A stretch of DNA of 64,000 nt from Acidimicrobiales bacterium (GTDB taxonomy: Bacteria; Actinomycetota; Acidimicrobiia; Acidimicrobiales; CADCSY01). The DNA is taken from assembly GCA_035512495.1 (NCBI GenBank), contig DATKDW010000083.1, forward strand, positions 6,045 through 70,044. The letters are read 5' to 3'. Positions 1,970 through 18,453 of the stretch are shown one piece after another. The notes below the pieces were generated by a model. The model was not told the origin of the DNA, searched no databases, and was given only the letters and a program-made list of their open reading frames with translations. The stretch's first letter is position 1. Each line of letters starts with the position of its first letter. Both the position numbers and the translations under genes were made by a program.

Positions 1970-1980
1970 CGCCGATCAGC

Positions 1981-2075
1981 CGCTCCATAATCCAAACGAC
2001 CACACTCCAACACCTCTCGGATATTGGCGCATACGCGGGCCCGCTGCTCAGTCCCAGTCGGCGCGGCGGAGGATC
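1981..2075 (+). repeat. long-form copy of the intergenic repeat family
   Basis: Has the exact 13-mer CGCTCCATAATCC. About 28 nt later comes GGCGCATACGCGGGCCCGCTGC...GGCGCGGCGGAGGATC, related to the cores at 4441, 13547 and 15824. Confidence 0.4.
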
Positions 2076-2130
2076 TCGACTGCAACGTCGCGCACTCGTC
2101 TTACGTCGAGCCGGCCACGGCCTGATGGCA

Positions 2131-2907: not shown

Positions 2908-3055
2908 CGCGGCGCACCCTACGGCCGCCGTGGTGACAGAGCACGAGACTTTCGGCCCCATGGCCGACGTGGTCCGGCCCGAACCCGGCTGGTCTCAGCG
3001 AGGCGTACAGAACGCCGACCGTCGGCGCGGCAAGAAGTGACGTGCGGACGCTGGC

Positions 3056-3595
3056 TTGAGGACGGAGACTCGCGTCGTGGGTGATGCGGACTACGAGGAG
3101 ATTCGGCGGTGCATTGCGAGCGGCACCGCTCGCCTCGAGGTCCGGGCGCTCAGTCCCGACCATCTTGTCGCCATCACTTGGTCCGGGAACCCCACCCACA
3201 TCGAGAACGTGGCGCGCCAGCTCGAACGAGTACCTTCGGGCGAGGTCCAGTACTTGGCCGTCTTCGTCGACGGAGAACCGGTATCGAAGGGCGGTGTCGA
3301 CTTCGCGAAGGAGCCTGGCGCCGGCACCATCTGGCAGCTGGCTACCCACCCTCGGCTCGAAGGTCTCGGGCTCGCCACGACGCTCATCGGAGAGCTCGAG
3401 CTCCGGGCAGCACAGCGCGGCATCACCAACTTGCGGCTAGGTGTCGAGCCAGACAACGAACGCGCCCTCCGTCTCTACGAGCACTTGGGCTACCGCAGGA
3501 TCGGTGAGTCCGAAGCTTCCTGGGAAGCTGAACGCAGTGACGGTTCGCGTTTCCTCCACACGACGAGGATCGCCGAAATGTCAAAGCCAGCCTGA
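3056..3595 (+). CDS. GNAT family N-acetyltransferase
   Basis: The acetyl-CoA motif is LATHPRLEGLGLATTLI, followed by NERALRLYEHLGYR. The start is uncertain: TTG 3056 or GTG 3077. Confidence 0.8.
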   Translation: MRTETRVVGDADYEEIRRCIASGTARLEVRALSPDHLVAITWSGNPTHIENVARQLERVPSGEVQYLAVFVDGEPVSKGGVDFAKEPGAGTIWQLATHPRLEGLGLATTLIGELELRAAQRGITNLRLGVEPDNERALRLYEHLGYRRIGESEASWEAERSDGSRFLHTTRIAEMSKPA

Positions 3596-3622
3596 GTCGG
3601 AGCTGGACCGCACGGAAGGCAC

Positions 3623-3643
3623 CCGAACCAGGCTCGGGTTCGG
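3623..3643 (+). terminator. hairpin downstream of the GNAT gene
   Basis: CCGAACC-aggctcg-GGTTCGG is a 7-bp perfect stem followed by TTG. It lies 28 nt after stop codon 3595. Confidence 0.35.
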
Positions 3644-3736
3644 TTGCAACAGAACGCGCGTCCCGAATGCCACCGTCTCGACCCCAAGACGCGCAAGAGA
3701 ACGGCGCATCGCGCGCACGCTCCGTGCCGGAGCCGA

Positions 3737-4369
3737 TTAGTTCTCGCGCGGGCAGCCAGCTTCGAAGGGAACGCAGTCGAGCAGCGACCCGCCGGCTGCG
3801 GTCCATTGCTGCTCATCGACGGCAACGAGGTGCGCAGCGAGCTCGTTGAGATCGACGCCGACGTCGTATGTCAGCAACGTCGTGGTGTAGTCGGCCGTCA
3901 CTTCGAGGATCACGACCGCCGGATTGCCGTCGACCGCGGCCGACACCAGCGCCGGTTGCCCGTCGACGACCTCCGATCGGAGCTCGAAGCCCGGGAGTTG
4001 ACCGCGCCGCCGTTCGAGACCTGTCCTGTGACCGAAAGTTGTGACGTGCGGGATCGTGTACGAGCCATCGGCGTTGTCCCTGCGAGGTCCGTCGTACTCC
4101 GCGAACCAGTCAACATCCGGGTCCCGCGCCTCAAGTGCGCCGAGGCCTGCCCGGTAGTCGACCGCCTCCGTCAGCTGCCACGTCGGCTCGCCGAGCAGCA
4201 TGAGATGGACTTCGTCTGCCGTTGACTCGGTGCGAGACGTCGAGGTTGCGCTCGCGCTCGGTTGGCTGCTGCCGTCCGTACCGGTGTCATCGCCGCAGGA
4301 GCCAACGACCATGAGCGCGGCTGCAGTCACCAGCCCGGCTCGTGCTCTCGGAGCGCGCCGTCGCCTCAC
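3737..4369 (-). CDS. putative lipoprotein, unknown function
   Basis: The N-terminus MRRRRAPRARAGLVTAAALMVVGSCGDD has a positive n-region, a hydrophobic core and a lipobox-like VGSC. A Ser/Thr-rich linker follows. Confidence 0.65.
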   Translation of the reverse strand: MRRRRAPRARAGLVTAAALMVVGSCGDDTGTDGSSQPSASATSTSRTESTADEVHLMLLGEPTWQLTEAVDYRAGLGALEARDPDVDWFAEYDGPRRDNADGSYTIPHVTTFGHRTGLERRRGQLPGFELRSEVVDGQPALVSAAVDGNPAVVILEVTADYTTTLLTYDVGVDLNELAAHLVAVDEQQWTAAGGSLLDCVPFEAGCPREN

Positions 4370-4382
4370 CGAGACATCCTAG

Positions 4383-4409
4383 TCGCGAGCGCCAAACGCG
4401 CGCTCGCGA
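4383..4409 (-). terminator. perfect 9-bp hairpin between the GNAT (4518) and lipoprotein genes
   Basis: TCGCGAGCG-ccaaacgcg-CGCTCGCGA, read directly from the sequence. Confidence 0.35.
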
Positions 4410-4440
4410 ATCCGGCTTCCGGTCACGGCAGAGCCGCACA

Positions 4441-4512
4441 GACCGGCGCTTCTCCAGCGACGAGCGGGTTGCCGACTGGCGACCAGGAGCGCCGTCCCGA
4501 GCGGCACTTCGG
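4441..4512 (+). repeat. intergenic repeat family, copy A
   Basis: GACCGGCGCTTCTCCAGCGACGAGCGGG...GAGCGGCACTTCGG aligns block-wise with 13547-13625. The CGGCACTTCGG end sits 6 nt from the stop of the minus-strand GNAT gene (4518). Confidence 0.6.
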
Positions 4513-4517
4513 TACGG

Positions 4518-5222
4518 CTACCGATGCGCGTCCTCTGCCAACTCTCGAAGGGACCTCCGTTGACCGCCTCCCTCAACGAAGTTGTCTGCGGACAGCCAAT
4601 TCTTGAAGGCGGGACGGAGCTTTTCCCAGTCAGCATCGGTGATGGCGAACCAGGCGGTGTCGCGGTTGCGGCCCTTGTAGTGCGTCGCCTGCCGGAACGT
4701 TCCCTCGTAGAGGAAGCCGAGTCGCTCGGCGGCCGACCGTGACGGGGCGTTCAAGTCATCGCATTTCCACTCGCAGCGTCGATAACCGAGGTCGAAGCAG
4801 TGGTCGATCATGAGGTAGAGAGCTTCGGTCGCTGCTGTGGTTCGTTGCAGCGACGGAGAGAAGGCGATCGAGCCGATCTCGAGAACACCGCTTTGTTGGT
4901 CGACTCGGAGGTAGCTGGCGAAGCCGACAGGTTTGCTGTCAAGGGTGATGGCGTACGGCTGCCGGTCTGAGTGTCCTGTCATGGCATCGAGTGCGCTTGT
5001 CAGCTCCTCCGGGTTCTGGAACGGGCCGATGGCCATGTAGGTCCAGAGGGATGGGGACGCCTCGGCGAAGGCGGCGAACAGACCGTCGGTGTGCAGCCGC
5101 CTGTCGAGTGGCTCCAATTGAACGAGGTCTCCGGTCAGACCGGTGGGCGATGGCATCGCCGGCGGGGCCCATGCGCCGAGGGCGACGCCGACCGGCTGAC
5201 CGAACTGGTTGACGTCGTGCAC
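4518..5222 (-). CDS. GNAT family N-acetyltransferase (RimJ/RimL-like, about 230 aa)
   Basis: Contains LEIGSIAFSPSLQRTTAATEALYLMIDHCFDLGYRRCEWKCDDLNAPSRSAAERLGFLYEGTFR. Confidence 0.85.
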   Translation of the reverse strand: MHDVNQFGQPVGVALGAWAPPAMPSPTGLTGDLVQLEPLDRRLHTDGLFAAFAEASPSLWTYMAIGPFQNPEELTSALDAMTGHSDRQPYAITLDSKPVGFASYLRVDQQSGVLEIGSIAFSPSLQRTTAATEALYLMIDHCFDLGYRRCEWKCDDLNAPSRSAAERLGFLYEGTFRQATHYKGRNRDTAWFAITDADWEKLRPAFKNWLSADNFVEGGGQRRSLRELAEDAHR

Positions 5223-5698
5223 CTCATGACGGTAGCGACGGTGACTTCGCTGGCAGGTGCGCTTTCCGGCCGTTCCGGGATACTGCGGGCACTGAACCGC
5301 AGCCGCACTCGCCCACGGTCGACGTGGGCGACGCCTAGTCGAACCGGACCGCCGCCGACGACGAGGCCAGCCTCGACGACGGGTGATCGTCCGCTCCGAC
5401 AGTTGGGCACGCGGACAAAAGACGCCTTCCGCCGCAGATGTCGTTCAACCTCTGGCGGTGACGAAGTTGAGGAGATGGTTGGGCACAGAGGGCAGGCAGG
5501 CCTCGCTGTGACGCAGCGAACATCCGCACCGAACGCCCGACGCCGCCCGAACACCGTGGAACGGCTCGCTGCAGCCGCCCAGAACGCGCGCTCCAGAACA
5601 CGGTCATGCCGATCGGGCAAGCCGAGCAGCACTGCGCTTCGCCGAAGCGCTGCGTAGCCGGCGATCTGGGCAGGTCACGGCATCGTTTATCGGTGAGA

Positions 5699-6673
5699 AT
5701 GGGCTTGGTGGAACGACCTCCAGATGCAGATCGGAGAGCGCCTCGGCCGGTGTCGGAGCCGACGCCGAGGGCTGTCGCAGACGTACTCGCTGGGCTCCTC
5801 CCCGGGGTCGACTCAACCGTTGTCGACTGGGGTCAGTGGGACACCGACGGCGATCCCCGGTACCACCGGCGCGGCGTCCTGCTCGCAGGAGGCGAGCTCT
5901 TCGCCAAGTTCGCGTGGTCGGAGGAGGCCGCCGACCCGATCGCACGCGAAGGCCGCATCCTGGAGATCCTCGGACGCACGTCGTTTCCCGCTCCGGAGAT
6001 CGTTGCCGTCCACCCCGACAAGGCTCTGTTCGTGACTCGCCTCGTGCCGGGCGGGCCCGTGACCCCAGCGGGCCTCGGTCAACTGAGCCCGAGGGGCCTC
6101 GACCGCTTCGCCGGCCAGCTCGTCGAGGCCCTCGTGGAGCTTCGCTCCCCCGGGCTGCGAAACGACCTCGTCGCACTCGCCGACCCGAAGCCGCCCAGGG
6201 CCCAGGCAGACCCCGAGGAGCTCCGGGCCGACCTCGAACCGATGATTCGTCCCGATCAGTGGCGTCGCGTGCTCGCACTGCTTGAACGGGTCGAGCTCGT
6301 CCTCGCAACACCAGGGCCTGATCCGGTCGTCCTGCACGGCGACCTGCACGGCTACAACCTCGTCTGGGACGGAGAGCATCTGGCGGCGGTGTGCGACTTC
6401 GAGAGCCTCGCAGTCGGTGACCCTTCCTTCGAGGTCCGGTATTTGCCGGACAACGCCCCCAAGCAGACCTACGTCCGTGCGGTGCTCGACGGGCTTCGCC
6501 GCGCCGGTCACGACGACGATCTGGAGCGCGCACTTGCCTGGCATGTGCTGACTCGTCTGGGCGATGCCCGTTGGCGGACGCTGGCCGGGGTCGATCTCCC
6601 GGGCGGCGGGACGCCTGCGCAGTGGGTCGACGAGCTGTTCGCAGTCCTGGCCGAACACGCTGCCCTCATCTGA
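5699..6673 (+). CDS. aminoglycoside/choline-kinase-type phosphotransferase (APH family)
   Basis: The catalytic loop is VVLHGDLHGYNLVW, with CDFESLAVGDPSFEVRYL (the DFE corresponds to DxG/DFD). The start is placed at ATG 5699. The upstream part of ORF 5606 overlaps repeat-like sequence. Confidence 0.75.
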   Translation: MGLVERPPDADRRAPRPVSEPTPRAVADVLAGLLPGVDSTVVDWGQWDTDGDPRYHRRGVLLAGGELFAKFAWSEEAADPIAREGRILEILGRTSFPAPEIVAVHPDKALFVTRLVPGGPVTPAGLGQLSPRGLDRFAGQLVEALVELRSPGLRNDLVALADPKPPRAQADPEELRADLEPMIRPDQWRRVLALLERVELVLATPGPDPVVLHGDLHGYNLVWDGEHLAAVCDFESLAVGDPSFEVRYLPDNAPKQTYVRAVLDGLRRAGHDDDLERALAWHVLTRLGDARWRTLAGVDLPGGGTPAQWVDELFAVLAEHAALI

Positions 6674-6710
6674 ACAGAGAGTTCGCTCGTTCCGTTCGGG
6701 CGAATGCCGC

Positions 6711-7346
6711 TCAGGGGGCGTCCCATCCGTCGGGCAGTTCAGTTGGTTCGAGCATCTCGTCGGGGACCCCACGGGTCCAGGTCGCCTCATCGAACGGCCA
6801 CGTCCGGTCGCGGATGTCCGCAATGGCTAACTCGGCGGTGGCGTGAATCGATCGAGCTTCGGTGGAGCCGAACAGGCCGACCTCGACTGCGAACTCGAGT
6901 TCGTCGGCGTCCTTCAGCCGCCACTCGTCCAAGTCCGCAGAGACCGTGACATCGAGGACGTCATCACGCGAGTCGAAGCCGACCGTGGTACGGGCCCAAG
7001 GCTGTTCGAGGTTGACGTACCACCCCACGAACCGATTCTCCGTGACATCCCAGGTTCGGATTACCGAGTAGCTGCGGCCGACGGGATGGAGGCGTACGCA
7101 GGGCGGACGGTCCCAGGTGTCGTGGCGTCTCGACCCATCCCATGTGCCCGGCAGGAACGACCTGCCGCGCGGTCCGCCGCGCTCGGCAATTCGCCGCACG
7201 ATCGGCGAGCCAGTCGGCTGGACGACCGCAGCGACGTCGGGCTCATCAAGCAGGACCCGACACCCGAAGACATACCCGACGTCACCACCCGGGCGGGATC
7301 GCCACACCACCTGGGTTCCCGAGGAGAACGGTCGGTCACGACGCAT
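6711..7346 (-). CDS. DUF402 domain protein (FomD-like nucleotide phosphatase fold)
   Basis: WYVNLEQP...DDVLDVTVSADLDEWRLKDADELE is characteristic of DUF402. The start is moved to ATG 7346. Confidence 0.6.
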   Translation of the reverse strand: MRRDRPFSSGTQVVWRSRPGGDVGYVFGCRVLLDEPDVAAVVQPTGSPIVRRIAERGGPRGRSFLPGTWDGSRRHDTWDRPPCVRLHPVGRSYSVIRTWDVTENRFVGWYVNLEQPWARTTVGFDSRDDVLDVTVSADLDEWRLKDADELEFAVEVGLFGSTEARSIHATAELAIADIRDRTWPFDEATWTRGVPDEMLEPTELPDGWDAP

Positions 7347-7494
7347 GCGTCGAGTCTGCACCGGATGCGGAGAGCACCTCTCCCCAAGTGCCAGTAATTG
7401 GCACCAGCTATCAGCCGCTCCGAAATCCGTCACCCTTACCCGACCGGGAACTACCTATCGCCGCGTATTCGGTGATCGAGAGCAGACTGACATT

Positions 7495-8028
7495 GTGAGA
7501 AGGGTTGCCGTAGTCGGAGGTCCCGGGTCTGGGAAGTCGACCGTCGCTCGCCTCATCGCCGACCGACTGGACGCCCCGCTGGTCGAGCTCGACGCCCTGT
7601 GGTGGCAGCCGGACTGGGTGCCGACTGACCTCACCCAGTTCCGCAGCGACGTCCGGACCGTCTCCAACACGCCAGCGTGGGTCATCGAGGGCAACTACCT
7701 CGACGAGGTTGGTCGCGACATCGTCTTGCCGCGGGCCGACACGCTCGTGTGGCTCGATCCGCCCCGCCGGATCGCGATCGGTCGCGCCCTTCGTCGGAGC
7801 GTGGGTCGCCTCGTCCGACGCACCGAGCTCTGGGACACGAACCGGCAAGGGATCTCGACGTTGAGCCCAGCCTCTGTCGTGCGGCTGATCAAGAGATGGC
7901 CGGGCTACTCGAAGCTCATCGAGGAGACGCTCGCCAGCGGCCAGTACCCGCACCTGTCCGTGCACCGTTTGCGCAACGACCGAGAGTTCACCGCCTGGCT
8001 CGATCTCGACGGTCACCAGCACAGATAA
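7495..8028 (+). CDS. small P-loop NTPase/kinase (adenylate-kinase / topology-modulation-like)
   Basis: The Walker A motif is VVGGPGSGKSTVARLIA at the N-terminus when started at GTG 7495. The upstream part of ORF 7117 overlaps the DUF402 gene in antisense. Confidence 0.7.
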   Translation: MRRVAVVGGPGSGKSTVARLIADRLDAPLVELDALWWQPDWVPTDLTQFRSDVRTVSNTPAWVIEGNYLDEVGRDIVLPRADTLVWLDPPRRIAIGRALRRSVGRLVRRTELWDTNRQGISTLSPASVVRLIKRWPGYSKLIEETLASGQYPHLSVHRLRNDREFTAWLDLDGHQHR

Positions 8029-8050
8029 CGTCGACCGAGGCCAGCACGGG

Positions 8051-8488
8051 TCAGGTGTTCGGCCCATGTTGGACTGCGAAGAAGGCGTCAGCCGCGTCGA
8101 TCGAGGAGGGTGTGAAGCGGCACATCCTTGTCGTCGGGAGATCTAGCGATGGCACGAACCGCGGATCCCACGCGGATTGGTCGGCGCCGAGGTACCTCGC
8201 AAACGTCCTCATGGCTCGGCCACGGACCACGGGGATGATCTCGGACCTGCCTCGGGCGCGGACGTGGACTACCTCCCCGGTGACGATGTCGCAGACGTCG
8301 ACGACGACTACGAGTCGCTCGCCGGCGCTGACGAGCCGGTGAAGTACGTTCGCGGTGTCTGTGAGCCAGTAGAACGTTCGCTCCTCATACAAGTACCAGA
8401 CGGGGCGCAAGGTCGGTCCATTCGTGGCCACCCTGGCAACGAGTGATCGTTGAAGGAAGGCGTTGATGTCGACCTGGTCCCCTCGCAC
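8051..8488 (-). CDS. pyridoxamine 5'-phosphate oxidase family protein
   Basis: LVARVATNGPTLRPVWYLYEERTFYWLTD is a typical PPOX split-barrel N-terminus. GTG 8488 is chosen because the longer ORF overlaps the next gene. Confidence 0.65.
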   Translation of the reverse strand: MRGDQVDINAFLQRSLVARVATNGPTLRPVWYLYEERTFYWLTDTANVLHRLVSAGERLVVVVDVCDIVTGEVVHVRARGRSEIIPVVRGRAMRTFARYLGADQSAWDPRFVPSLDLPTTRMCRFTPSSIDAADAFFAVQHGPNT

Positions 8489-8552
8489 ACGCGGATCGTC
8501 GCACGCGGCACGCGTGGACCTCAAAGTCGAACGGGTCAGCTCTTGAGGTGGG

Positions 8553-9035
8553 TCACGTCGGTGGGTCGTAGGTCGCCAGCTCTTCGTCCGAGGGCGCCTC
8601 GTAGCTACCGCACCACTCGTCGAGTTCCGCACGAGCGATCGAGCGCGACGCCCACTTCCCTTCGAGGTCGCGTTCGACGATCCGCCTCCACAGCTCCTCA
8701 ACCGGAGCCGTGACATAGCGCAACTCGACGAGGGCGCCGACGGAGCGGGCGGAGTCCCGTAGAGCCTCCCTCTCCTCACGCGCCCAGACACCCCATTCGA
8801 TGACCACGTTCTCTCCAGCAGAAAGGAGTGTGAGAGCGAGCTCCAACTGGAACTGCTCGATGCGGGCCCGGGCGTCGGCGTCCCAGAGGTCGATCCCAGA
8901 CGCCATCATCCAGTCGTCCGGGCACATCCGAGCCGCAGGCATCGACGCTGCCAGTTCAAGAGCGAGACTGGTCTTGCCGCTGCCAGGAAGCCCGGTGATC
9001 ACCACGAGTCGTCCCACGCCTGACCTGCTGTCCAC
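8553..9035 (-). CDS. AAA_33 / zeta-toxin-like P-loop kinase
   Basis: The Walker A motif is VVITGLPGSGKTSLALELA. The protein is about 160 aa. The start is uncertain; several GTG codons occur at 9035-9041. Confidence 0.6.
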   Translation of the reverse strand: MDSRSGVGRLVVITGLPGSGKTSLALELAASMPAARMCPDDWMMASGIDLWDADARARIEQFQLELALTLLSAGENVVIEWGVWAREEREALRDSARSVGALVELRYVTAPVEELWRRIVERDLEGKWASRSIARAELDEWCGSYEAPSDEELATYDPPT

Positions 9036-9292
9036 CACGAGGACCACGATTGCACAGCGGAGGATGCGGGACTCAGGCCCTTGTGCTGGCGCGACGCCGA
9101 GGCGCTCTCCCTCCGACTCGCTCGAGCCCTCGCCACCTTGGCACCGCACCGATCGTGCGTACCGAACGCCGTCGCAGTGACCCGTCAGCGGCCTCGGTGC
9201 CACGTTCGTCCCGCCGGCAATCGGCGCTGCCTGGCAGGCGCCCAAGCCAGAAATCGACGGGCATCTGCTATTGGACCAGGAAAGATAGGGAT

Positions 9293-10321
9293 GTGGCCCC
9301 TGAGTACGTCATCACCAGGCACGACCCTGCCGAGTTCACTGATCAAGAACTTGCTGCGGGCGTTCGTCTCTACAACACCGTTGAGGCTGAGGTGTGGCCC
9401 GAGGATCCGGTCACGCCCGTGGGCGATGCGATCGCCAGATCACGCGCCGTTCCCTCGACGGTTGGGCGTACAGCGTTCCGTGCTTGGTCCGACGGAACGT
9501 TGGTTGGAGAGGTCGAGGTCGCGGTCGACTCAGAACACGACGACAACCCGGACTTGTTGACGTGCCAGATCATCGTCCGAGGCGAATACCGCCGACAGGG
9601 TGTCGGGACGGGTCTGCTGGAACGCGTGACGGAGTTCGCTCGGAGTCATGGTCGCCGACGCCTCGTCGGGAAGACCTACTCGCGAGTTCCCGATGGCGCG
9701 CAGTTCGCTCGACGAGTTGGCGCTGTCCAGAAGAGCGAGTCTCACACCAACCACCTGCCGTTGGCTGAAGTTGACCGAGCACTCTTGGAGTCGTGGGTAC
9801 GCGACGGCTCGCAGCGAGCCCACGGCTATGAGCTGTTGTCATGGGACGACACCGTCCCCGACGAACACCTTGGGGCGTTCCTCGACCTTCTCCTCGTGAT
9901 GAACGATGCCCCGACCGATGACCTCGAACTCAACGACTTCACGATCTCTCCTGGACAGTGGCGAGACGTTCAAGCCCAAGCTGCGGCGGTCGGACAGCAG
10001 CGATGGTTCCTGGTGGCGCGCCGGTCGAGCGACGGCGCGCTCGCCGCACTCCACGATCTCGCATGGGTCCCAGCATTCCCGCAGGTGATGTGGACCGGCT
10101 CCACCGGAGTGCGGCGAGAGGACAGGGGCCACGCTCTCGGCAAGTGGTTGAAGGCATCCATGACACTGCGCGTCCTCGCGGAGCGGCCCGGCGTCTCCGA
10201 CATCCGAACAGACAACGCGACAAGCAACGAAGCCATGCTCTCCATCAACCACGCCATGGGCTATCGGCCCCTGTTCGCGATTCGCCACTGGGAGCTACTG
10301 GTGGAGAAGAGTCAAGCCTAG
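9293..10321 (+). CDS. tandem (two-domain) GNAT acetyltransferase
   Basis: Two GNAT-like halves are present: IIVRGEYRRQGVGTGLLERV, and a C-terminal VRREDRGHALGKWLKA...NEAMLSINHAMGYR. GTG 9293 follows AGGGA. Confidence 0.7.
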   Translation: MAPEYVITRHDPAEFTDQELAAGVRLYNTVEAEVWPEDPVTPVGDAIARSRAVPSTVGRTAFRAWSDGTLVGEVEVAVDSEHDDNPDLLTCQIIVRGEYRRQGVGTGLLERVTEFARSHGRRRLVGKTYSRVPDGAQFARRVGAVQKSESHTNHLPLAEVDRALLESWVRDGSQRAHGYELLSWDDTVPDEHLGAFLDLLLVMNDAPTDDLELNDFTISPGQWRDVQAQAAAVGQQRWFLVARRSSDGALAALHDLAWVPAFPQVMWTGSTGVRREDRGHALGKWLKASMTLRVLAERPGVSDIRTDNATSNEAMLSINHAMGYRPLFAIRHWELLVEKSQA

Positions 10322-10423
10322 CTTTTCCCTTCTCACAACCCGCCGCGAGGGCTTCGCTCGGTCTCGAACCTGCGGCCCTCGCCAGAGACCAGTCCGAGCC
10401 CGTAGCCCCGGCACCGAACCAAG

Positions 10424-10538
10424 CCCCGACGTGCCGATCACCAGCGAGCCTCCGGCCGGGACCGCTCCGGGGAGCGACCGCTCCGATCATCCACTCCCGC
10501 TGGCCTCGACGGTGCGCGAGCCGGCAATCGGCGCGGGT
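10424..10538 (-). repeat. intergenic repeat family, copy E (reverse orientation relative to copies A and B)
   Basis: The reverse complement ends in GATCGGCACGTCGGGG and contains CCAGCGGGAGTGGATGATCGGAGCGG, matching A and B block-wise. It is about 85% identical by eye to copy F over about 95 nt. Confidence 0.6.
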
Positions 10539-10599
10539 CCGAGTCACCAGCGCGCATGGCGCGCGTGACAGCGTCGGGCCCGACGGGCACCATGCGGTC

Positions 10600-11139
10600 A
10601 TGGCTCATCTGGTCGTACTCGTCGGGCCGGTCGGCGCCGGCAAGAGCACGGTCGCCGGTCGGCTTGCGCAGCTTGTGAGGCAGAACGGCATGACCGCGGC
10701 AGACGTCGACATGGACGACGTCGCATTCATGCAGTGCGGCGGCGACGATGTGGAGGAGTTCTGGCGGCGGGCGGCAGTCGCGACGGCCGGGCTCATTCGG
10801 GCATGGTTCGACGCCGGCGTCGACGTTGTCATCACACACGGCCCGTTCTTCGAGTCCGGTGGGTTCGAGATCCTCCGGCACGCGCAACCGGTCGAAGTCG
10901 ACGTCCACCACATTCTGCTCCGCGTCACAGCCGAGGTCGCCATCACCCGTGTCCAGAGCGATCCGACCCGAGGCATTTCGAAGGATCCGACGTTTGTCCG
11001 GGACTCGAACGATCGGCTGCGAGGGCTCAGCGACCTGCTCCCGGTCATGAACCTCGAGCTCGACACGACTCAACGCGGCCCCGACGAGATCGCAGCCGAC
11101 GTGATGGCTGCCGTCACCGCTCCGACGCAACACGCCTGA
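10600..11139 (+). CDS. small P-loop kinase (AAA_33 / chloramphenicol-phosphotransferase-like size)
   Basis: MAHLVVLVGPVGAGKSTVAGRLA is a Walker A motif at the N-terminus. The rest of ORF 9958.. overlaps the previous gene and repeat E. Confidence 0.7.
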   Translation: MAHLVVLVGPVGAGKSTVAGRLAQLVRQNGMTAADVDMDDVAFMQCGGDDVEEFWRRAAVATAGLIRAWFDAGVDVVITHGPFFESGGFEILRHAQPVEVDVHHILLRVTAEVAITRVQSDPTRGISKDPTFVRDSNDRLRGLSDLLPVMNLELDTTQRGPDEIAADVMAAVTAPTQHA

Positions 11140-11238
11140 GTGCCAGCGGGCTGCCGCCGGGACCGCTCCGGGGGAGACCGCTCCGATCATCCAGTCGCGC
11201 TGGCCGTGACGGCGCGCGAGCCGGCAATCGGCGCGCCG
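11139..11238 (-). repeat. intergenic repeat family, copy F (direct repeat of copy E)
   Basis: CCAGCGGGCTGCCGCCGGGACCGCTCCGGGGGAGACCGCTCCGATCATCCAGTCGCGCTGGCCGTGACGGCGCGCGAGCCGGCAATCGGCGCG matches 10441-10535. It starts at the kinase stop codon. Confidence 0.65.
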
Positions 11239-11386
11239 GGAGCTGTTCGACGAGCTGAACGTTCTGCTGCGCTCAAGGGAGTTGCCTGGCATCGACTCGC
11301 ACATGAGGAATAGGTAACGGCCGGGCCGCGGCGCGTGCTCCTGGGACGGCGCCGCCGACGGGTGCTCCTACGGACCGCTGATCGGG

Positions 11387-11743
11387 CTAGCGGAAGAAGC
11401 CCCCGAATGGGCCGAAGTAGGTGGCCCCGAAGCCGTCGAGGACGCCCTTGACCTCGTCGCTCGGCGTTCCGAACACCTGCAGACTCACCGGATCGACGCA
11501 TGCCAGGAACCGCTCCGCGAAGTTGGCTCCGAAGTTCCCGAGGTGCACCATCGTCGCGGCGGAATCGGAGTATCGCTCGTAGATCGCGAGCTTGCCTTCG
11601 GCTTCATCGATGAACCACTCGTAACCCAAGGCGCCCGACTCGTCCTTCGTAGACGACACCATGTCGGCCATGAGCGACCGAAGGTTGTCGAGCTCGCCGT
11701 TCTTCACAGCGACCTGAATCACCCACGAGACTTCGTCTGCCAT
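11387..11743 (-). CDS. ABM-domain (antibiotic biosynthesis monooxygenase-like) protein
   Basis: 118 aa, with WVIQVAVKNGELDNLRSLMADMV...YEWFIDEAEGKLAIYERYSDSAATMVH, the typical ferredoxin-like ABM pattern. Confidence 0.65.
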   Translation of the reverse strand: MADEVSWVIQVAVKNGELDNLRSLMADMVSSTKDESGALGYEWFIDEAEGKLAIYERYSDSAATMVHLGNFGANFAERFLACVDPVSLQVFGTPSDEVKGVLDGFGATYFGPFGGFFR

Positions 11744-11990
11744 TGCAAACCTCCTCGACTGTCTGGGTCAGTCGATTCCCACCCGACGGAACAAGACAGG
11801 ACCCGAGCGACTGCCTCGCCTTAGATCCGGGCTGGGAACACGGATCGCAACGCAACCTAGCCGACGCACCTCTCCTCGCACCGAGAACGCAGACTGCTTC
11901 CTTCCGCGAGCGCGACCGATCGACGGTTCCAGCAGCTCCGCGCCGAGGCCGCACCGAGCGGGCAAGCAGAACGCGCCGACCGATCCCGGC

Positions 11991-12170
11991 GAGGCCGCGG
12001 AACAGATCCTGTTCGTTGGCGACAACCTGCACGACGACATCGGCGGAGCAACCAGGTCCGGCCTGCCGTCAGTCCACATGGATCGAGACGGGTCCTGCCA
12101 GGCTGACGACCACGCCGACATCGCGAGTTGCGTCAGAGACCTCAGATCGCTGCTGGCGTGGCTTGGCTGA
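11991..12170 (+). pseudogene. HAD-superfamily hydrolase, C-terminal remnant
   Basis: A frame not listed in the ORF track reads EAAEQILFVGDNLHDDIGGATRSGLPSVHMDRDGS...LAWLG*. This is HAD motif IV (VGDxxxDIxGA). No start codon or motifs I-III were recognisable upstream. Confidence 0.5.
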
Positions 12171-12285
12171 GCAGCACCGATCACCCGCGCAATGGACCCG
12201 GGCCTCGCGTGCTCCAATCCGTACCGATCGGCGCGTAGCGCGCCGCCGCCCACGAGATGGCATCTGACACCAGAGGGATGGCGGC

Positions 12286-12582
12286 TCAGGCGTCAGGGGC
12301 GGGCTGCCGGAGTGCGTGGCTATCGAGCTCCATTTGGTAGATGCGCTTGAAGTCCTCGATTGCTGCCAACGCTCGCTTCCCATGCGGGCTTGCCGCCATC
12401 TCGCCCTCCTGTCCTTTCACGGGTTCGAAAGAGTGCAGGACGATCTTTTCGAGGAGCTGTCCGAGGGTGAGTCCTTCGAGCTCGGCGAGCGCCTTCAGGA
12501 CCTTCACCATGCTCCGCTCCATCCGGACGCCGATTTGGACGCGATCGACGCGCGTCGGAGCATTCCGTTGGGTCGGGACCAT
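12286..12582 (-). CDS. ribbon-helix-helix (CopG/antitoxin-like) small protein
   Basis: RVQIGVRMERSMVKVLKALAELEGLTLGQLLEKIVL has the beta-strand plus two-helix RHH pattern. 98 aa. Confidence 0.5.
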   Translation of the reverse strand: MVPTQRNAPTRVDRVQIGVRMERSMVKVLKALAELEGLTLGQLLEKIVLHSFEPVKGQEGEMAASPHGKRALAAIEDFKRIYQMELDSHALRQPAPDA

Positions 12583-12622
12583 GGGACCAAGTTACCGTAG
12601 TCCCACCGACCTAGGAGAGACC

Positions 12623-13447
12623 ATGTCCGATCCGTACGCGCTCGCGGTGCACAGCTCCTTCGACGAAGTCGAACCGCAGTTCCATGCCGTGCTGGAAGCG
12701 AGCCTTGACCCCCGTGGTCCAGATGCGCTCTTCGACATCGTCGCTGGGCTCGGACTCGAGAGCGGCGCGGTCGTGCTCGACGCCGGGTGCGGCCGCGGGC
12801 GACAGTCACTGGAGCTGGCGCGGCGATTCGGCTTCGACGTGCTCGGCGTCGACCCCGTCGACCGGCACGCGCCAATCGACAAACAGCTCGCCGAGCGACC
12901 CCTGACGGCCGGATCGGTGCGCTTCACCGAGGGGAGATTCGAGCAGCTGCCAGTCGAGGACTCCTCGATCGACCTGATCTTCTGCCGTGACTCGATCATG
13001 TTCGGTGACCTCGCCGTGACGGCAACCGAGTTCCACCGCGTCTTGCGTCCCGGCGGCCGAGGTCTCGTCTACCTCGTCCTCACCGGTCCACTGATGAGCG
13101 AGCCCGAGGCCGACCACTTCGACCATCTCATGCGCGGCCGAACGCTTCGCCCGGCCGAGATCGACGCAGCACTTGAACGCAACGGTCTCACTGTCAACGA
13201 CCGCATCGACTACAGCGGCGAGTGGGCGGAACGATCCCAGGAGCAGGACGGAGAACCTGCTCGACGACTCCTGTTCGCATCTCGACTACTGAGAAGGCCC
13301 GATCACTACATCCAGAAGTTCGGACAAGACCACTACGACATCATGCTCGGCGACTGCCTCTGGCACGTCTACCGCATGATCGGGAGACTCTCCGGCTACG
13401 CCTGCACCTTCACGCGACCGTTGGCTGCTTCTCCGCCGCCCGAGTAG
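12623..13447 (+). CDS. class I SAM-dependent methyltransferase
   Basis: ATG 12623 is preceded by AGGAGA. Motif I is VVLDAGCGRGRQSLELA, followed by IDLIFCRDSIMF and LRPGGRGLV. Confidence 0.85.
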   Translation: MSDPYALAVHSSFDEVEPQFHAVLEASLDPRGPDALFDIVAGLGLESGAVVLDAGCGRGRQSLELARRFGFDVLGVDPVDRHAPIDKQLAERPLTAGSVRFTEGRFEQLPVEDSSIDLIFCRDSIMFGDLAVTATEFHRVLRPGGRGLVYLVLTGPLMSEPEADHFDHLMRGRTLRPAEIDAALERNGLTVNDRIDYSGEWAERSQEQDGEPARRLLFASRLLRRPDHYIQKFGQDHYDIMLGDCLWHVYRMIGRLSGYACTFTRPLAASPPPE

Positions 13448-13505
13448 AGCCGCCATTGATCGCCAAGGTCGGCGAGACCGAGCAACTGATGCCGCACCGA
13501 GCGCG

Positions 13506-13625
13506 CGCTCCATAATCCGCATCGGCTCCTGCACTTGACCCGAGCAGAACGGCGCTTCTCCAGCGGCGATCGGGACGGCGGGTGCTAGCCAGGCGAGTCC
13601 TCGCGATCGGCACTTCGGCTGCGGG
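13506..13625 (+). repeat. intergenic repeat family, copy B (long form, with the 13-mer)
   Basis: CGCTCCATAATCC is followed 28 nt later by GAACGGCGCTTCTCCAGCGGCGATCGGGACGG...GCGATCGGCACTTCGGCTGCGGG. The CGGCAC end faces the stop (13642) of a minus-strand ORF. Confidence 0.6.
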
Positions 13626-13641
13626 ACCGAGATCAGTCGAT

Positions 13642-14022
13642 CTAGATGAGATGGCCCTCAAAGAACTCGGAGACGTTGTCGAAGCCGGCGGCGGTCAACA
13701 TGCGCTCCTCCTGGGGTGCTGGGTCGGGTGCGGCATCCCGGGTGACGACCGCCAGCACAGCACCTGCGGCTTCGGCCTCAGCTACCGCTCGCACTGCCAC
13801 CTCCGAGTCGATGTTTCCGAGGATGCAGACCGGTCCGCCAGGCGCATAGACCGGCGGCGCAGGCACGAGCATCGCCGTGACCCCTGCGAGCTCCACCTCG
13901 GCAAAACCGACCTCCGCTGGCTGGGAAGGGTCCAGAGGACACACCCACCAACGCGAGACAACGGTCAGTCCGAGGTCCGACAGCATCTGACGCTTTGCGG
14001 TGTCCTGGCGCGCGGTCACCAC
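13642..14022 (-). CDS. hypothetical protein (possibly the chimeric 3' part of a decayed gene)
   Basis: A 126-aa ORF with no recognisable motif. It overlaps the out-of-frame tail of the APH-like ORF 13778..14374. Confidence 0.3.
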   Translation of the reverse strand: MVTARQDTAKRQMLSDLGLTVVSRWWVCPLDPSQPAEVGFAEVELAGVTAMLVPAPPVYAPGGPVCILGNIDSEVAVRAVAEAEAAGAVLAVVTRDAAPDPAPQEERMLTAAGFDNVSEFFEGHLI

Positions 14023-14058
14023 CCGGACTCGGACCGGTCGGGCGAGGGGCTACGGGCC

Positions 14059-14374
14059 AGGGGAAGGGGTACGCCTCGCAAGGGTTGCCCATGGCGACTG
14101 CCTCGGGGATGGCCAGCGGCAACTGGGGGCGTGCCCAGTCGAGCCAGCGGTGGTGGGCTTCGATCGCCTCGTAGCTCGACGCGAAGCTCGGCGCCCGAGG
14201 AAGCCGTAGGACCAAGTCATGACCGAGCCGGAAGATGGCGTTCACGGTCCCGGACGACCGGAGACGCCGCAGCGGCAGCCCTCGCCAGCGAGGGAACTGG
14301 GTGTCGACGAGAGAGCGCGCGAGGGAGTCGTCGATGGGAACCTCGTCGCCGTGGAGGGGAGTGTGATCGGTCAT
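14059..14374 (-). pseudogene. APH-family phosphotransferase, N-terminal lobe only (frameshifted or truncated)
   Basis: The first 105 or so aa of ORF 13778..14374 (SGTVNAIFRLGHDLVLRLPR...LPLAIPEAVAMGNPCEAYPFPW) look like an APH N-lobe. After that the frame turns to G/R/P-rich nonsense, and no HxDLxxxN catalytic loop appears in any frame. Confidence 0.45.
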
Positions 14375-14396
14375 AGACTGGCCTACAGCACCGGTG

Positions 14397-14855
14397 TCAC
14401 CGAACAGGGCTCCCGGCGCTCTCGACCGTTCTGAGGAAGGTCAGGCTCGGCCAATCGATCGTGAGTCCCTCGCCATCATCAAGCGCCACCCACCGACCGG
14501 CGTAGAAGTTGAGAACCTCCGCACACGGGGTCGGTTCCCCGTGCGTCCAGCGGCGAAGGTGCTCTCCGACCACGTGCTCAGCCCTGTCGATGCCGCCGCG
14601 GTTCTGCGCGATCACCGCGCGACCGGGCTTGGTCCGCTTGCGACCGGTGCTCCTGAAGGTCGCCCCCGCGGCGACGCTGCCCCAGAAGCCATCATCGATG
14701 CCGACGGTACCTTCGACCAGCAACTGGAGGAGGTCGTGCGGCATGCCGCCGCGGCCGAGGGCCATCGGGGTGCCGGGGATCCTGGTTCGCTTCCCTCGAA
14801 CTGCCTCCCAGTACGAAAGGCGGTCCTCCACCATCTTGAAGAAGGTGATGCGCAC
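14397..14855 (-). CDS. hypothetical protein
   Basis: A 152-aa ORF of normal composition with a GTG start. No family was recognised. Confidence 0.45.
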   Translation of the reverse strand: MRITFFKMVEDRLSYWEAVRGKRTRIPGTPMALGRGGMPHDLLQLLVEGTVGIDDGFWGSVAAGATFRSTGRKRTKPGRAVIAQNRGGIDRAEHVVGEHLRRWTHGEPTPCAEVLNFYAGRWVALDDGEGLTIDWPSLTFLRTVESAGSPVR

Positions 14856-14901
14856 GAACCGCCACCGTAGGAGCGACTACCTATCACCGACACCAAATAT
14901 C

Positions 14902-14952
14902 GAACGCGGCCGCCTCTCCGGCGAGAAGGATCGGCGCGTCGCGAGCGGTCAA
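14902..14952 (+). repeat. intergenic repeat family, short copy I
   Basis: GAACGCGGCCGCCTCTCCGGCGAGAAGGATCGGCGCGTCGCGAGCGG shares the GAACGSSGC...CTCC.GCG...GATCGGC blocks. It lies 3' of the GT2 gene (stop 14961). Confidence 0.4.
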
Positions 14953-14960
14953 GTCTTCTG

Positions 14961-15749
14961 TCAGGTCGGAGGTGACTCGCAAGCGGCGATCAGAGACGGC
15001 CCGTCGAGCGCTCCCACCTCAGATCGGAAGCGGGTCAGGATCGACTCGTATCTCTCGCGGGCACCTGGGATGCCTCCGAAGTGGGGTGCGTGATGCTCGA
15101 GGGCCCACTCGTAGAGCGGGTGAGAGCGATCATCGCTGGTCACGACGCCCGCGAGGCTTGCCCTGCCCCGGTGAATGAGATACCCGTCGGCTGCGAAAGG
15201 GAAGTTCTCGGCAGCAAGGCCAGCCTGCTGGGCGGCTGCGAGGAGCTCGAACGACGGGTCACCATCGTCCCGGAAGGTGGGTGCACCAGGGTGCCAGATC
15301 TGCATGGGATCGATGAGCAGGCTGTACAGCTCCAAGCGGTGCATCTCATGCCATGGATCCCAGTGGCGCTCGCCGACGATCGCGGCGCCGCTCCCAGCGA
15401 CGGCCAGTGCCTCACGGAGCACGTCGCCACGGCGTATGACCACATCGGAGTCGAGGATCCACACGTAGCGGGGCGGTGTCGGTTGCTCGACAAGCTCTCC
15501 CATCGCCTGGTTCAGGGCTGGGCCGTGGTGAGTGTTCTCGTCGTTGGCGAGCAGTCGGCAGAGGCCTGCCTCGGACGCTTCGGCGAGCAGCCGACCTGAC
15601 CCGTCGCTCGAGCCGTTGTCCACCACAACCACCTCGACGTCATCGTCGAGGACGCGGTGTAGCGACCAAAGAAGCAGCGCGGTGAACTCGATGGTGTTGA
15701 ACGACACGGTGACGACGCTGACCCGGCCTTGACCGATGCTCCCGGACAC
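14961..15749 (-). CDS. glycosyltransferase family 2
   Basis: VSVVTVSFNTIEFTALLLWSL...VVVVDNGSSDGS is the classic GT2 N-terminus. A DSD motif occurs in WILDSDVV. Confidence 0.8.
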   Translation of the reverse strand: MSGSIGQGRVSVVTVSFNTIEFTALLLWSLHRVLDDDVEVVVVDNGSSDGSGRLLAEASEAGLCRLLANDENTHHGPALNQAMGELVEQPTPPRYVWILDSDVVIRRGDVLREALAVAGSGAAIVGERHWDPWHEMHRLELYSLLIDPMQIWHPGAPTFRDDGDPSFELLAAAQQAGLAAENFPFAADGYLIHRGRASLAGVVTSDDRSHPLYEWALEHHAPHFGGIPGARERYESILTRFRSEVGALDGPSLIAACESPPT

Positions 15750-15823
15750 AGAACGAGTATCGACGACGATCGCACCTATCGGGCACTCAGTATCCCCACG
15801 AGCTGGCGCATCGCCTCCGCCCC

Positions 15824-15880
15824 GATCGGCGCATCTCCAGCGTCGATCAGGACGGATGGCGGCTAGGAATCCTGGGCCAG
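15824..15880 (+). repeat. intergenic repeat family, copy C (not adjacent to a gene 3' end)
   Basis: GATCGGCGCATCTCCAGCGTCGATCAGGACGGATGGCGGCTAGG matches the 5' half of copy B (GGCGCTTCTCCAGCGGCGATCGGGACGGCGGGTGCTAGCC). Confidence 0.5.
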
Positions 15881-15997
15881 CCGCGTGTCTGAGTGATGGT
15901 CTCGAGCACGCCGGAGCGCTCTGCCCGCTCAGCAGATCGACGTGCGGATCCGTCGGTGCGAGACTGGGACGACACGGCCATGGATCAGGAGCGCACC

Positions 15998-16393
15998 ATG
16001 TCGGGCCTCGCCATCATCACCGAAGCGTGCATCGGCGTGAAGGACCGTGCGTGTGTCGACGTGTGCCCGGTCCAGTGCATCTACGAGCTCGATCAGGCCA
16101 AGGGTGTGTTGTTCTCCGAGGACGAAGCCGGCAGCGGCGAGATCGAGAACACCCACGCGCCCGACCCGGACTCCATCGGGGTGTTCGGGGACAGCCTGCT
16201 GTACGTGAACCTGGAGGAGTGCACGTCGTGCACCGCCTGCTACCAACCCGACGTCTGCCCTGTCGGTGCGATCTATACCGAGGAAGCCGTGCCCGACGGC
16301 ACCGATCCCAAGGCCTACAACGCCGAGGACCCGCACAAGGGCCACGACCACACCTTCTTCATTCAGCTCAGCCGCGACGTCTTCGCCGACTGA
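15998..16393 (+). CDS. ferredoxin, two Fe-S cluster motifs separated by an unusually long insertion
   Basis: MSGLAIITEACIGVKDRACVDVCPVQCIY carries the Cx7Cx3CP motif. About 50 aa later comes CTSCTACYQPDVCPVGAIY. ATG 15980 is an alternative start. Confidence 0.75.
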   Translation: MSGLAIITEACIGVKDRACVDVCPVQCIYELDQAKGVLFSEDEAGSGEIENTHAPDPDSIGVFGDSLLYVNLEECTSCTACYQPDVCPVGAIYTEEAVPDGTDPKAYNAEDPHKGHDHTFFIQLSRDVFAD

Positions 16394-16688
16394 CGGTGCC
16401 GGCCCGCCATGAGCGGAAACCGGGCAGCCTGGGGGCGGTGTGCCCCGAAGCGAGCGCGATCGCCGGCATCCGATGCGTCGTGTCGACCCCCCTTGAGACC
16501 GAGAGCAGCAACCTCGACGAGGTGTCGCTGTCGCCTCCAGCTGGCCCACGGCTTGACCGTGACGGAAGACGGGCGTTGATCACGGGCCTCCTGTCGGCGA
16601 TGCCAGGCCACTCGGCGGGCCGTCTGAGCAGGACGCCACACGCCTCTGGGCGATGTCTACCGATCGCGGAAGCCTCAAATGCGGACGC

Positions 16689-16745
16689 CTATCGGCGGCA
16701 CCGATCTCCAGAGCGCGTGGTCAGCACGCCGGCACTGCCGCGGTG
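16689..16745 (+). repeat. intergenic repeat family, degenerate copy D
   Basis: CTATCGGCGGCACCGATCTCCAGAGCGCG...CGCCGGCACTGCCGCGG lies 3' of the minus-strand relE (stop 16766), in the same gene-relative orientation as copies A, B and I. Confidence 0.4.
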
Positions 16746-16765
16746 AGCCTCTCCGCGCCGACTGG

Positions 16766-17029
16766 TCAGGATCTGTAGACGTCTCGGCGGTGACCCACGC
16801 TCACCACGAGCACGACGAGGCGACGGTCGTGCACCTCGTAGATGATCCGATAGTCACCGACCCGAACTCGGTAGGCGCGCTCCTCGCCCTTGAGGGCCAC
16901 ACACCCCGGCGGACGAGGCTCGTCTGCCAGCAGGTCGATCGCAGCTCGGATCCGCTGCTGCTCACGCCTGGGCAAACGGGCAAGCGACTTCACCGCTCGA
17001 CGCGCGATGTGGACCTCATAGCGGCTCAC
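16766..17029 (-). CDS. relE: type II toxin, RelE/ParE superfamily
   Basis: 87 aa, with YRVRVGDYRIIYEVHDRRLVVLVVSVGHRRDVY. It overlaps the upstream antitoxin gene by 4 bp. Confidence 0.85.
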   Translation of the reverse strand: MSRYEVHIARRAVKSLARLPRREQQRIRAAIDLLADEPRPPGCVALKGEERAYRVRVGDYRIIYEVHDRRLVVLVVSVGHRRDVYRS

Positions 17030-17277
17030 GCCAAGCCCAGGTCCGCCTTGACCTCATCCCAAGGCACGTAGTCGTCCTCTTCCCGAGCGGCTTCGAGCTC
17101 GTATCGATCGATCGCGTCCTCAGCCGCCTCGACGACCTGGTCGTACAGGTCGGCGTCGAGGATCACGGCCACGCGTCGACCTCGCCGCGTGACATAGACG
17201 GGCTCGCGTGATCGCCTCGCCTCGTCGATGATCTCGGCAAGCCGGCTCCTCGCTTCGCTCACGGCGATATCGCTCAT
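17026..17277 (-). CDS. type II antitoxin, Phd/YefM family
   Basis: MSDIAVSEARSRLAEIIDEARRSREPVYVTRRGRRVAVILDADLYD has an acidic C-terminus. ATG 17292 is an alternative start. Confidence 0.85.
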   Translation of the reverse strand: MSDIAVSEARSRLAEIIDEARRSREPVYVTRRGRRVAVILDADLYDQVVEAAEDAIDRYELEAAREEDDYVPWDEVKADLGLA

Positions 17278-17335
17278 GTACGAATCGTACATGAAGCCTC
17301 GGCGGGGGCGCCTCCTCGGGCTCGGGCGCCTTCCA

Positions 17336-17374
17336 CGGCAGAGGTCAGGGGTTCGAGTCCCTTTGCGCCCACCA
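17336..17374 (+). other. tRNA 3' remnant (variable loop, T-arm, acceptor 3' strand, encoded CCA); not a complete tRNA
   Basis: CGGCAGAGGTC-AGGGG-TTCGAGT-CCCTT-TGCGCCC-A-CCA. The T-loop TTCGAGT and stem AGGGG/CCCTT are canonical. No D-arm or intact anticodon arm lies upstream. Confidence 0.6.
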
Positions 17375-17394
17375 CGCGCCTGCGCCTTCCGGCG

Positions 17395-18453
17395 CTAGAT
17401 CGCCAGCTCGCTCTTGGTGCGGCCCTGGCGGGACCAGTAGGAGTCGGTGCGCCCGAGGCGGAAGTGTGCGGGCTTCTCGTCGTCGGCCAGCAGCTCGGTC
17501 TCCAACCACAGGCGCTTGAGGTGGCGGACCTTGCCGCTGGCGCGGTCGTCCTCGTAGCCCTTGCGGGCGTGGAGCACGTGGTAGTTGTTGATGAACTGCA
17601 TGTCGCCCGGCTGCAGAACCATGCTCACGTGGTGCTTCGGGTCGGCGCACATCTCGTCGACTCGGTCGAGGGCTTCCCGGGCCCGGTCGGAGATCAGCGG
17701 GGCATCCTCGTGGCGGGTCACCGAGTCGATGTACGGGCGGATGTAGCGCACGAAGAGCCGGGCGCCCTTCCGGCTGCAGATCGGCATCAGGTACCAGCTC
17801 TTCCCTCCTGGCGGCTGCTCGCCTCGGAGGTCGTAGGGATAGGGCTGGTAGAGCTCGGCGGCCAGCTCCGGGTCGGTGCGCACCAGCTCGTTGTGGATGG
17901 TGACGATGTTGGCCACCAAGCTGGCACCGCCTCGCAGGCCGGGGTCGAGGCAGAACAGCCCGACGAGGTCGGAGCCGTCGGAGTGGAAGGGGAACGGCAC
18001 ACCGCCGATCTCGTTGCCCCGTGAGGTCCCGTCGGTGTAGCTGCGTCCCTGGTCGGTCACATCGCCGAGCAGGTGGCCCTTGGCGTTCTGCGGCCAGGGC
18101 GCACCGAGGTGGGCACCGACGCCCCAGTAGATCGTCGACGCCCGCTCCTTCGAGTAGCGCTCCATGGGCAGACCGCGGATCAGCGTGACCCCCCGGCCGT
18201 TGATGAGCTCGTCGGTGATGCGGGCCAGCTCGGGGCCGAGGGTCGGGAGGGGGAAGTGGTCCTTGGTGACGTCGAGCACGTCGTCGCAGCGGCGCTCGGC
18301 TTCGTGGAGGGCGGCGTCGAGCTCGGACACGTGCTCGTCGCTGAGGTGGAAGACGTAGCTCTCGCCGAGGTCGTCACGGCGCCACTCGCACTGCTCCTCC
18401 AGCGGCTCGAGGTCGGACGGGTCGACGGCGGTGCTGGTCTCGGTCGTGGTCAT
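17395..18453 (-). CDS. TauD/TfdA-family Fe(II)/2-oxoglutarate dioxygenase
   Basis: The start at ATG 18453 is preceded by GGAGG. FPFHSDGSD carries the HxD iron ligands, and NNYHVLHARKGYED is present near the C-terminus. Confidence 0.8.
   Translation of the reverse strand: MTTTETSTAVDPSDLEPLEEQCEWRRDDLGESYVFHLSDEHVSELDAALHEAERRCDDVLDVTKDHFPLPTLGPELARITDELINGRGVTLIRGLPMERYSKERASTIYWGVGAHLGAPWPQNAKGHLLGDVTDQGRSYTDGTSRGNEIGGVPFPFHSDGSDLVGLFCLDPGLRGGASLVANIVTIHNELVRTDPELAAELYQPYPYDLRGEQPPGGKSWYLMPICSRKGARLFVRYIRPYIDSVTRHEDAPLISDRAREALDRVDEMCADPKHHVSMVLQPGDMQFINNYHVLHARKGYEDDRASGKVRHLKRLWLETELLADDEKPAHFRLGRTDSYWSRQGRTKSELAI

Follow-up and report, generated by a model that had tools for sequence, protein, structure and literature searches.

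A dispersed ~105-nt repeat that may mark joints between single-gene accessory modules in low-GC islands of an Acidimicrobiales bacterium

Within a 64-kb stretch of a draft Acidimicrobiales genome (hereafter the window; C83:6045-70044), a small P-loop kinase gene is bracketed by two direct repeats, E and F, which sequence comparison identifies as members of a dispersed element family rather than as a private or sister pair. We consider the chances about even that this lineage-restricted element, ~105 nt long, marks joints between single-gene accessory modules in low-GC islands. Each module would then have element sequence at its ends: in the kinase unit, block B, the tail end of one element, would lie ahead of the gene's own ~40-nt leader and the ORF, and the head of the next element would begin right at the stop codon (TRA, then GTGC..CCGATC). 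The kinase would thus be bracketed by two copies because it and the preceding GNAT gene each end in an element, with no recent duplication involved.

Both copies are full long-form elements on the + strand, E at 10431-10537 (GTGCCG...ATCGGCGCGGG) and F at 11140-11236 (GTGCC...ATCGGCGCG). In E, a 5' GTGCCG and a variable GC-rich segment precede CCGATCATCC (10483-10492), block A (TCCCGCTGGCC, 10495-10505) and block B (GCGCGAGCCGGCAATCGG, 10514-10531); the 5' end of F is degenerate, with GTGCCAGCG in place of GTGCCGNT..CCAGCG. An earlier note made from the letters of this DNA had described two same-orientation repeats, about 85% identical over about 95 nt, and blastn agrees closely, giving 88.4% identity across 95 aligned columns with two 1-nt indels. 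The ungapped core (10470-10535 against 11170-11235) is 89% identical over 66 nt and the whole length 81%; the precise alignment that the note had called for thus leaves both the local and the full-length value above the level of about 70% under which it held that its claim would fail. Two internal words, of 18 and 22 nt, each occur exactly twice in the 64-kb window (chance expectation 0.16 and 0.02, respectively). The placement given in the note is likewise borne out: E lies between the two genes, starting 110 nt past the GNAT stop (10321) and ending 62 nt ahead of the kinase ATG; F follows directly on the kinase TGA (11137-11139), its start one base past the stop codon; and the distance from E start to F end is 806 bp, as against the ~800 bp proposed for the repeat-kinase-repeat unit. 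What has to be given up is the idea of the repeats as a feature specific to the kinase, since the family adjoins many unrelated accessory genes.

Searching the source genome (2.8 Mb, 72% GC, 97 contigs, 96% complete) by iterated nhmmer and a sequence-only covariance model, R1, we found 10-12 long-form copies, on four contigs only and co-oriented within each cluster. Besides E and F (+), contig C83 carries copies at 1243 and 2655 (-); the others lie at C50 19903, 23220 and 26086 (-), at C52 42524, 44431 and 49946 (-), and at C39 62802 and 64118 (-). The element starts with (A/G)N-GTGCCG, often right behind a TAA or TGA stop codon, and continues through a variable GC-rich segment of 40-55 nt, CCGATCA(T/A)CC or a CCGAA variant, block A (consensus TCGCGCTGGCC), 7-9 variable bases and block B (consensus GCGCGAGCCGGCA(A/G)T(C/A)GG-N-GCGG); in summary, GTGCCG ... 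CCGATCATCC ... TCGCGCTGGCC ... GAGCCGGCAATCGG. Across ~35 copies from eight genomes its ends are (A/G)NGTGCCG and GAGCCGGCA(A/G)TCGG. Truncated half-copies and mosaic copies are common, and likeness is ~80% inside a genome and 55-67% between genomes.

The window also holds short-form relatives, so that element copies occur there on both strands. One (4441..4512, -), whose reverse complement opens AAGTGCCGCTC and closes CGCTGGAGAAGCGCCGGTCTGTGCGG, sits directly 3' of a GNAT gene (4518-5222, -); a second (13547..13625, -) is 74% identical to it; and a degenerate copy (14902..14952, -) sits directly 3' of a glycosyltransferase gene (14961-15749, -). By eye, the copies at 4441 and 13547 open AAGTGCCG and close CGCTGGAGAAGCGCCG(G/T)TCTG, that at 16689 has AGTGCCG with weaker 3' blocks, and of those at 14902 and 15824 the internal blocks alone remain. 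Some 30 nt from a short-form copy there is an AT-containing 13-mer, CGCTCCATAATCC (reverse complement GGATTATGGAGCG; 13506-13518), and a near-identical word, GGATTATGGGCGC, stands behind the stop of a kinase ortholog in metagenomic contig L043 (L043:2120-2135).

The copies are found in the genome's islands of lowest GC. The first 18 kb of the window (1..18000) form a low-GC accessory island, which extends 6 kb further upstream of the window and has 64-68% GC against 72% for the genome and 71-77% for the rest of the window. It encodes methyltransferases, a sulfotransferase, GNATs, an APH, three P-loop kinases, a PNPOx, an ABM monooxygenase, a GT2 and a Phd antitoxin. Genome-wide, the flanks of all 12 copies fall within the lowest 6% of 6-kb GC windows, and those of 10 within the lowest 3.4%. 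Because composition-based gene calling is unreliable in such islands, we assigned genes by Pfam matches and inspected reading frames; around the kinase, the composition-based caller chose over the real gene a 288-aa antisense open frame (10438-11304, -) that spans the whole kinase gene, from F to E, and is most likely an artefact of high GC content. A co-oriented gene ends 0-120 nt ahead of at least 8 of 11 long-form copies, and for 6-7 of the 11 a co-oriented gene starts within ~100 nt downstream. Three copies (F, C50_19903 and C39_64118) stand between convergent genes, which for those three excludes a role solely as 5' leader. Around the kinase itself, the upstream neighbour is a GNAT acetyltransferase (9050..10321, +; Pfam Acetyltransf_1 / Acetyltransf_7), a 423-aa open frame whose true start is uncertain, and the downstream neighbour is a convergent ABM monooxygenase gene (11387..11743, -); with no + strand gene behind it, F would act only as a 3'-side element.

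The window has, inside one 4-kb stretch, three distinct genes for small P-loop kinases (AAA_33, Zeta or CPT-like), at 7495-8028 (+), 8553-9245 (-) and 10600-11139 (+), adjoining PNPOx-like (8051-8791, -) and GNAT genes, and a similar gene set (CPT-like kinases, PNPOx, GNAT and APH) recurs on metagenomic contig L022. At C52:49650-49990, an element copy reduced to its 5' half precedes two genes that look by eye, from N-terminal sequence rather than by Pfam search, like a vapB (AbrB/SpoVT-like) and vapC (PIN) pair, which suggests that elements also join toxin-antitoxin modules. Another copy on this contig (C52:44431-44551) directly adjoins a tRNA gene (C52:44560-44640), which borders a region with a weak integrase-like match (C52:35664) and a helicase-like ORF (VLVIDEAGM motif).

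Of the 33 genomes in the taxonomic family, R1 detects the element in 8, which represent 4 of its 12 genera. The source genome has 10 copies, others have 20, 6 and 2, four more have one each, and the remaining 25 have none; within one genus, copy number differs widely. Two relatives carry co-oriented arrays spaced by 0.45-3.9 kb, with four copies in 4.1 kb on G024:C210 and, on G023:C220, four + strand copies (237, 1424, 2473 and 6381) and a weak fifth at 7985; the genes between them are mostly ORFans, together with a MerR regulator, an RHH protein and an ECF sigma factor.

The kinase gene offers the clearest view of how such a unit behaves. It encodes a 179-aa protein (10600..11139, +) that is CPT/AAA_33-like, with Pfam matches to AAA_33 and CPT-like families that fall below threshold, and carries the Walker A motif GPVGAGKST in its P-loop (MAHLVVLVGPVGAGKST); an exact-protein look-up returned no record. 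The gene is accessory, being present in 3 of the 33 family genomes. In metagenomes its orthologs (68-86% identity) are common; the neighbourhoods of those at 68-85% differ in every contig examined, at least eight of them unrelated. Where the window has the GNAT gene upstream and the ABM gene (-) downstream, L024 has an unrelated 424-aa gene upstream and a 67-aa gene (-) and an inositol phosphatase (-) downstream, and family genome G009 (L075) has an unrelated 426-aa gene upstream; by BLASTP, these two ~424-aa genes, although GNAT-sized, are unrelated to the window GNAT. The ortholog lies between a 127-aa gene and a biotin ligase (-) in L025, between a 125-aa gene and an 84-aa gene (-) in L043, between a contig end and a 347-aa gene (-) in L044, between a 177-aa GNAT and a CPT-like kinase (-) in L022, and between an amylase (-) and a 129-aa gene in L026. 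In L042, a methyltransferase overlaps the kinase start, and downstream is a short partial ORF (37 aa) whose frame, by eye, resembles a response-regulator receiver domain. A metagenome scan with the window's GNAT protein found relatives at no more than 35% identity, and thus neither a strain-level locus nor an empty site.

In most contexts the kinase is accompanied by its leader and, ahead of that, by the 3' part of an element. This leader (10538..10599, +; GCGTGACAGCGTCGGGCC..CACCATGCG) is conserved before the ortholog in four other contigs, regardless of which gene precedes it, and in the alignment all five contexts share a block-B-like tail, GCAAYNGGNGCG, followed by the leader GCGTGAC..CACCATGC, beyond which the sequences diverge further upstream. 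On the other side, the kinase stop is followed in the window, L024 and L044 by an element head through CCGATC..CC, the point at which similarity to L044 stops. With the gene confined to 3 of 33 genomes, its orthologs set between unrelated genes and pieces of the element at both ends, the mobile kinase unit that the earlier note had suspected gains substance, and module shuffling is, on comparative sequence evidence, well supported for this kinase. The L022 and L042 orthologs have little or no element sequence; upstream of the former (L022:4700-4970) there is no element, and several TTGGCGTCAA / TTGACGTCAA-type words are found there that are possibly operator sites.

One of these contigs preserves what looks like the trace of an event. 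In L024, an ENA farmland contig, a ~150-nt remnant of a kinase 3' end (3130-3310) lies upstream of the unrelated 424-aa gene and is nearly identical to the corresponding part of the intact kinase (5370-5549), ~2.2 kb downstream. Identity between the two collapses within ~2 nt of the boundary between TAA and GT, where a different element copy starts, so that an end of the rearrangement coincides with the edge of an element. Judging from this alignment, the remnant is the record of a recent rearrangement with one end at the 5' edge of the element. From this breakpoint and the recurrence of element parts at module borders, we infer that the elements are the cause of shuffling, being places where modules would be joined or exchanged; they could act as portable recombination homology, or as sites for a putative recombinase. 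The breakpoints fall at three places in the element (the 5' edge, after CCGATC..CC, and near block B) rather than at one fixed point, which makes homology-driven or illegitimate joining more likely than a single site-specific crossover.

Several observations weigh against the elements as module joints. No recombinase is linked to them: matches to PF00589 in the source genome (G000) lie on C16, C47, C75, C40, C56 and C52 (at 35664), with none on C83, C50 or C39; tyrosine recombinases show no consistent co-location with element contigs in seven other genomes; and their number does not track element copy number. The copies in the window lie in both orientations, unlike a classical cassette array, and the breakpoints keep to no single position. 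The contrast between ~80% likeness within and 55-67% between genomes could equally have arisen if a purely RNA-level 3' element spread locally or underwent gene conversion; and around several kinase orthologs (L022, L042) element sequence is nearly or wholly absent. As for the recombinases themselves, three genomes of one sister genus (G047, G024 and G013) have 26-42 tyrosine-recombinase matches each against 6 in the source genome, some of them adjacent in twos or threes on one contig (G024:C159, G024:C143 and G047:C283), an arrangement that resembles recombinase-in-trio elements.

The element could instead be a 3'-UTR RNA module (a U-tract-less terminator, stabiliser or insulator) that hitch-hikes with horizontally acquired genes but does not help to move them, its own spread being due to gene conversion. 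Copies that stand in sense orientation just behind stop codons, three of them between convergent genes, are what such a module would lead one to expect, and its consensus has inverted-repeat potential (UCGCGC..GCGCGA and CCGAU..AUCGG), which in the R1 copy of L024 becomes a perfect 11-6-11 palindrome (TCGCGAGCGGC-TTGCAC-GCCGCTCGCGA); E, F and most other copies have 6-bp arms only (TCGCGC/GCGCGA), 13-16 nt apart. A preponderance of G-U over A-C cells on the sense strand (59 vs 27) adds a weak hint of pairing. Formal tests, however, give this structure little substance. RNAalifold found almost no consensus structure in 10 or in 31 copies; a hand-built three-helix model of the 3' module has 70.8% of cells paired over 28 distinct copies, against 69.4 +/- 0.9% when shuffled, a level of pairing that 42 of 500 shuffles reach, so that covariation is not significant; and folding energies are close to those of dinucleotide shuffles (mean z -0.1 for the 5' module and -0.3 for the whole element, with a further value of -0.9). 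With neither covariation nor an excess of folding, conservation appears to lie in sequence blocks rather than in demonstrable pairing. Scans found no intrinsic terminator (hairpin and U-tract) in 10200-11500, U-tract-less actinobacterial types lying outside the scan, and a search of both strands of window 1-20000 against Rfam 15 gave no hit at E <= 1, which sets aside a curated RNA family as an identity. The RNA module also leaves the L024 breakpoint at the element edge unexplained; we regard it as the chief rival, possible but unlikely.

That the family is instead a non-autonomous transposable element (MITE-like, or the hairpin of an HUH transposon), multiplied in some genomes and landing beside stop codons, would suit its patchy distribution, a copy number ranging from 0 to 20 within a genus, its short inverted ends (GTGCCG...CGGCA) and the many copies that open with TAA or TGA followed directly by GTGCC. 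We nonetheless think it improbable: the complementarity of the ends, at 5-6 bp, and the lack of any duplicated flank or target-site bases at E, F and C50_23229 speak against a MITE, and the absence of a Y1/RAYT transposase (no PF01797 match in the 96%-complete genome, with control genomes matched) against REP/RAYT and IS200/IS605-type hairpins; the element's length and sequence, unlike the 20-40-nt palindrome and 5' GTAG of REP, count against REP too; moreover, orientation is fixed relative to the upstream gene, and half-copies and mosaics abound. A block-B tail that always precedes the kinase leader, in all five contexts, and the frequent co-oriented gene start just downstream of a copy might mean that downstream genes share a promoter or leader supplied by the element's 3' half, with E controlling the kinase. 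This is hard to reconcile with F, C50_19903 and C39_64118, which have no co-oriented downstream gene; no sigma-70-type promoter hexamers were found, and the genes downstream of copies are functionally unrelated (kinase, GNATs, VapB antitoxin, PLP enzyme, oxidoreductase), so that we give a promoter little credence. Least probable of all is a recent local event that duplicated the repeat during kinase insertion, or, as the earlier note had put it, the recent insertion of a gene-plus-repeat unit beside an existing copy. Direct repeats of 88% local identity placed exactly around one gene would be its signature, but at full length a copy on another contig, C50_23229, matches E just as well as F does (81% in either case) and matches F at 79%, which argues that E and F are not sister copies; and L024, with a 79%-identical kinase, shows the same layout with strongly diverged elements, which indicates that the arrangement is old.

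Integrons are among the nearest parallels. Their cassettes, attC sites and CALINs share with the present family single accessory ORFs (GNATs, kinases, toxin-antitoxin genes, ORFans), a 60-140-nt site at or near the stop, sites that resemble one another inside a genome and have diverged from one genome to the next, the same ORF in different arrays, and co-oriented arrays with ~0.5-3 kb spacing (here the clusters on C50, C52, G023:C220 and G024:C210). They differ in that the element has neither core sites, nor a nearby IntI, nor a supported hairpin, that both orientations occur in one island, that there are several breakpoints in place of one crossover point, and that each gene retains its own leader. 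An attC identity is rejected on sequence, since the core sites are missing: there are no RYYYAAC/GTTRRRY cores, the AAC...GTT arrangement is found on neither strand, and no IntI lies nearby. Actinobacteria have been reported to lack complete integrons (PMC9024848). That this Acidimicrobiales family possesses an integron-like cassette exchange system built on a ~105-nt non-attC junction element, with the kinase a true cassette excising and reinserting via a putative recombinase, seems to us doubtful.

Other dispersed sequences offer partial likenesses. REP/BIME (RAYT) and ERIC-like repeats are also dispersed, GC-rich and intergenic, with inverted-repeat potential and a post-gene position, often lie within transcription units and are known rearrangement substrates; unlike REP/BIME, the present element has ordered blocks over ~105 nt, no accompanying RAYT gene, and a distribution confined to low-GC islands rather than genome-wide. 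On Acinetobacter plasmids, XerC/XerD sites flank accessory modules known as pdif modules. There too, a short site recurs at the borders of small modules, accessory or toxin-antitoxin, that are reshuffled from replicon to replicon, and the perfect palindrome of the L024 R1 copy recalls such a site; most element copies differ from it in their imperfect palindrome and wider spacer, and in a sequence unlike dif.

In their layout the islands described here recall cassette arrays: genes for small modifying enzymes (acetyltransferases, phosphotransferases and kinases) and toxin-antitoxin genes are each tied to a recurring junction element. If the elements mediate exchange of these modules, they would point to a route, so far unrecognised, by which Actinobacteria abundant in soil and water capture and shuffle genes, and would provide a sequence tag for the flexible gene pool in metagenomes. 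Were they 3'-end RNA modules only, they would still constitute an undescribed, island-specific repeat family, one that breaks assemblies and marks horizontally acquired DNA.
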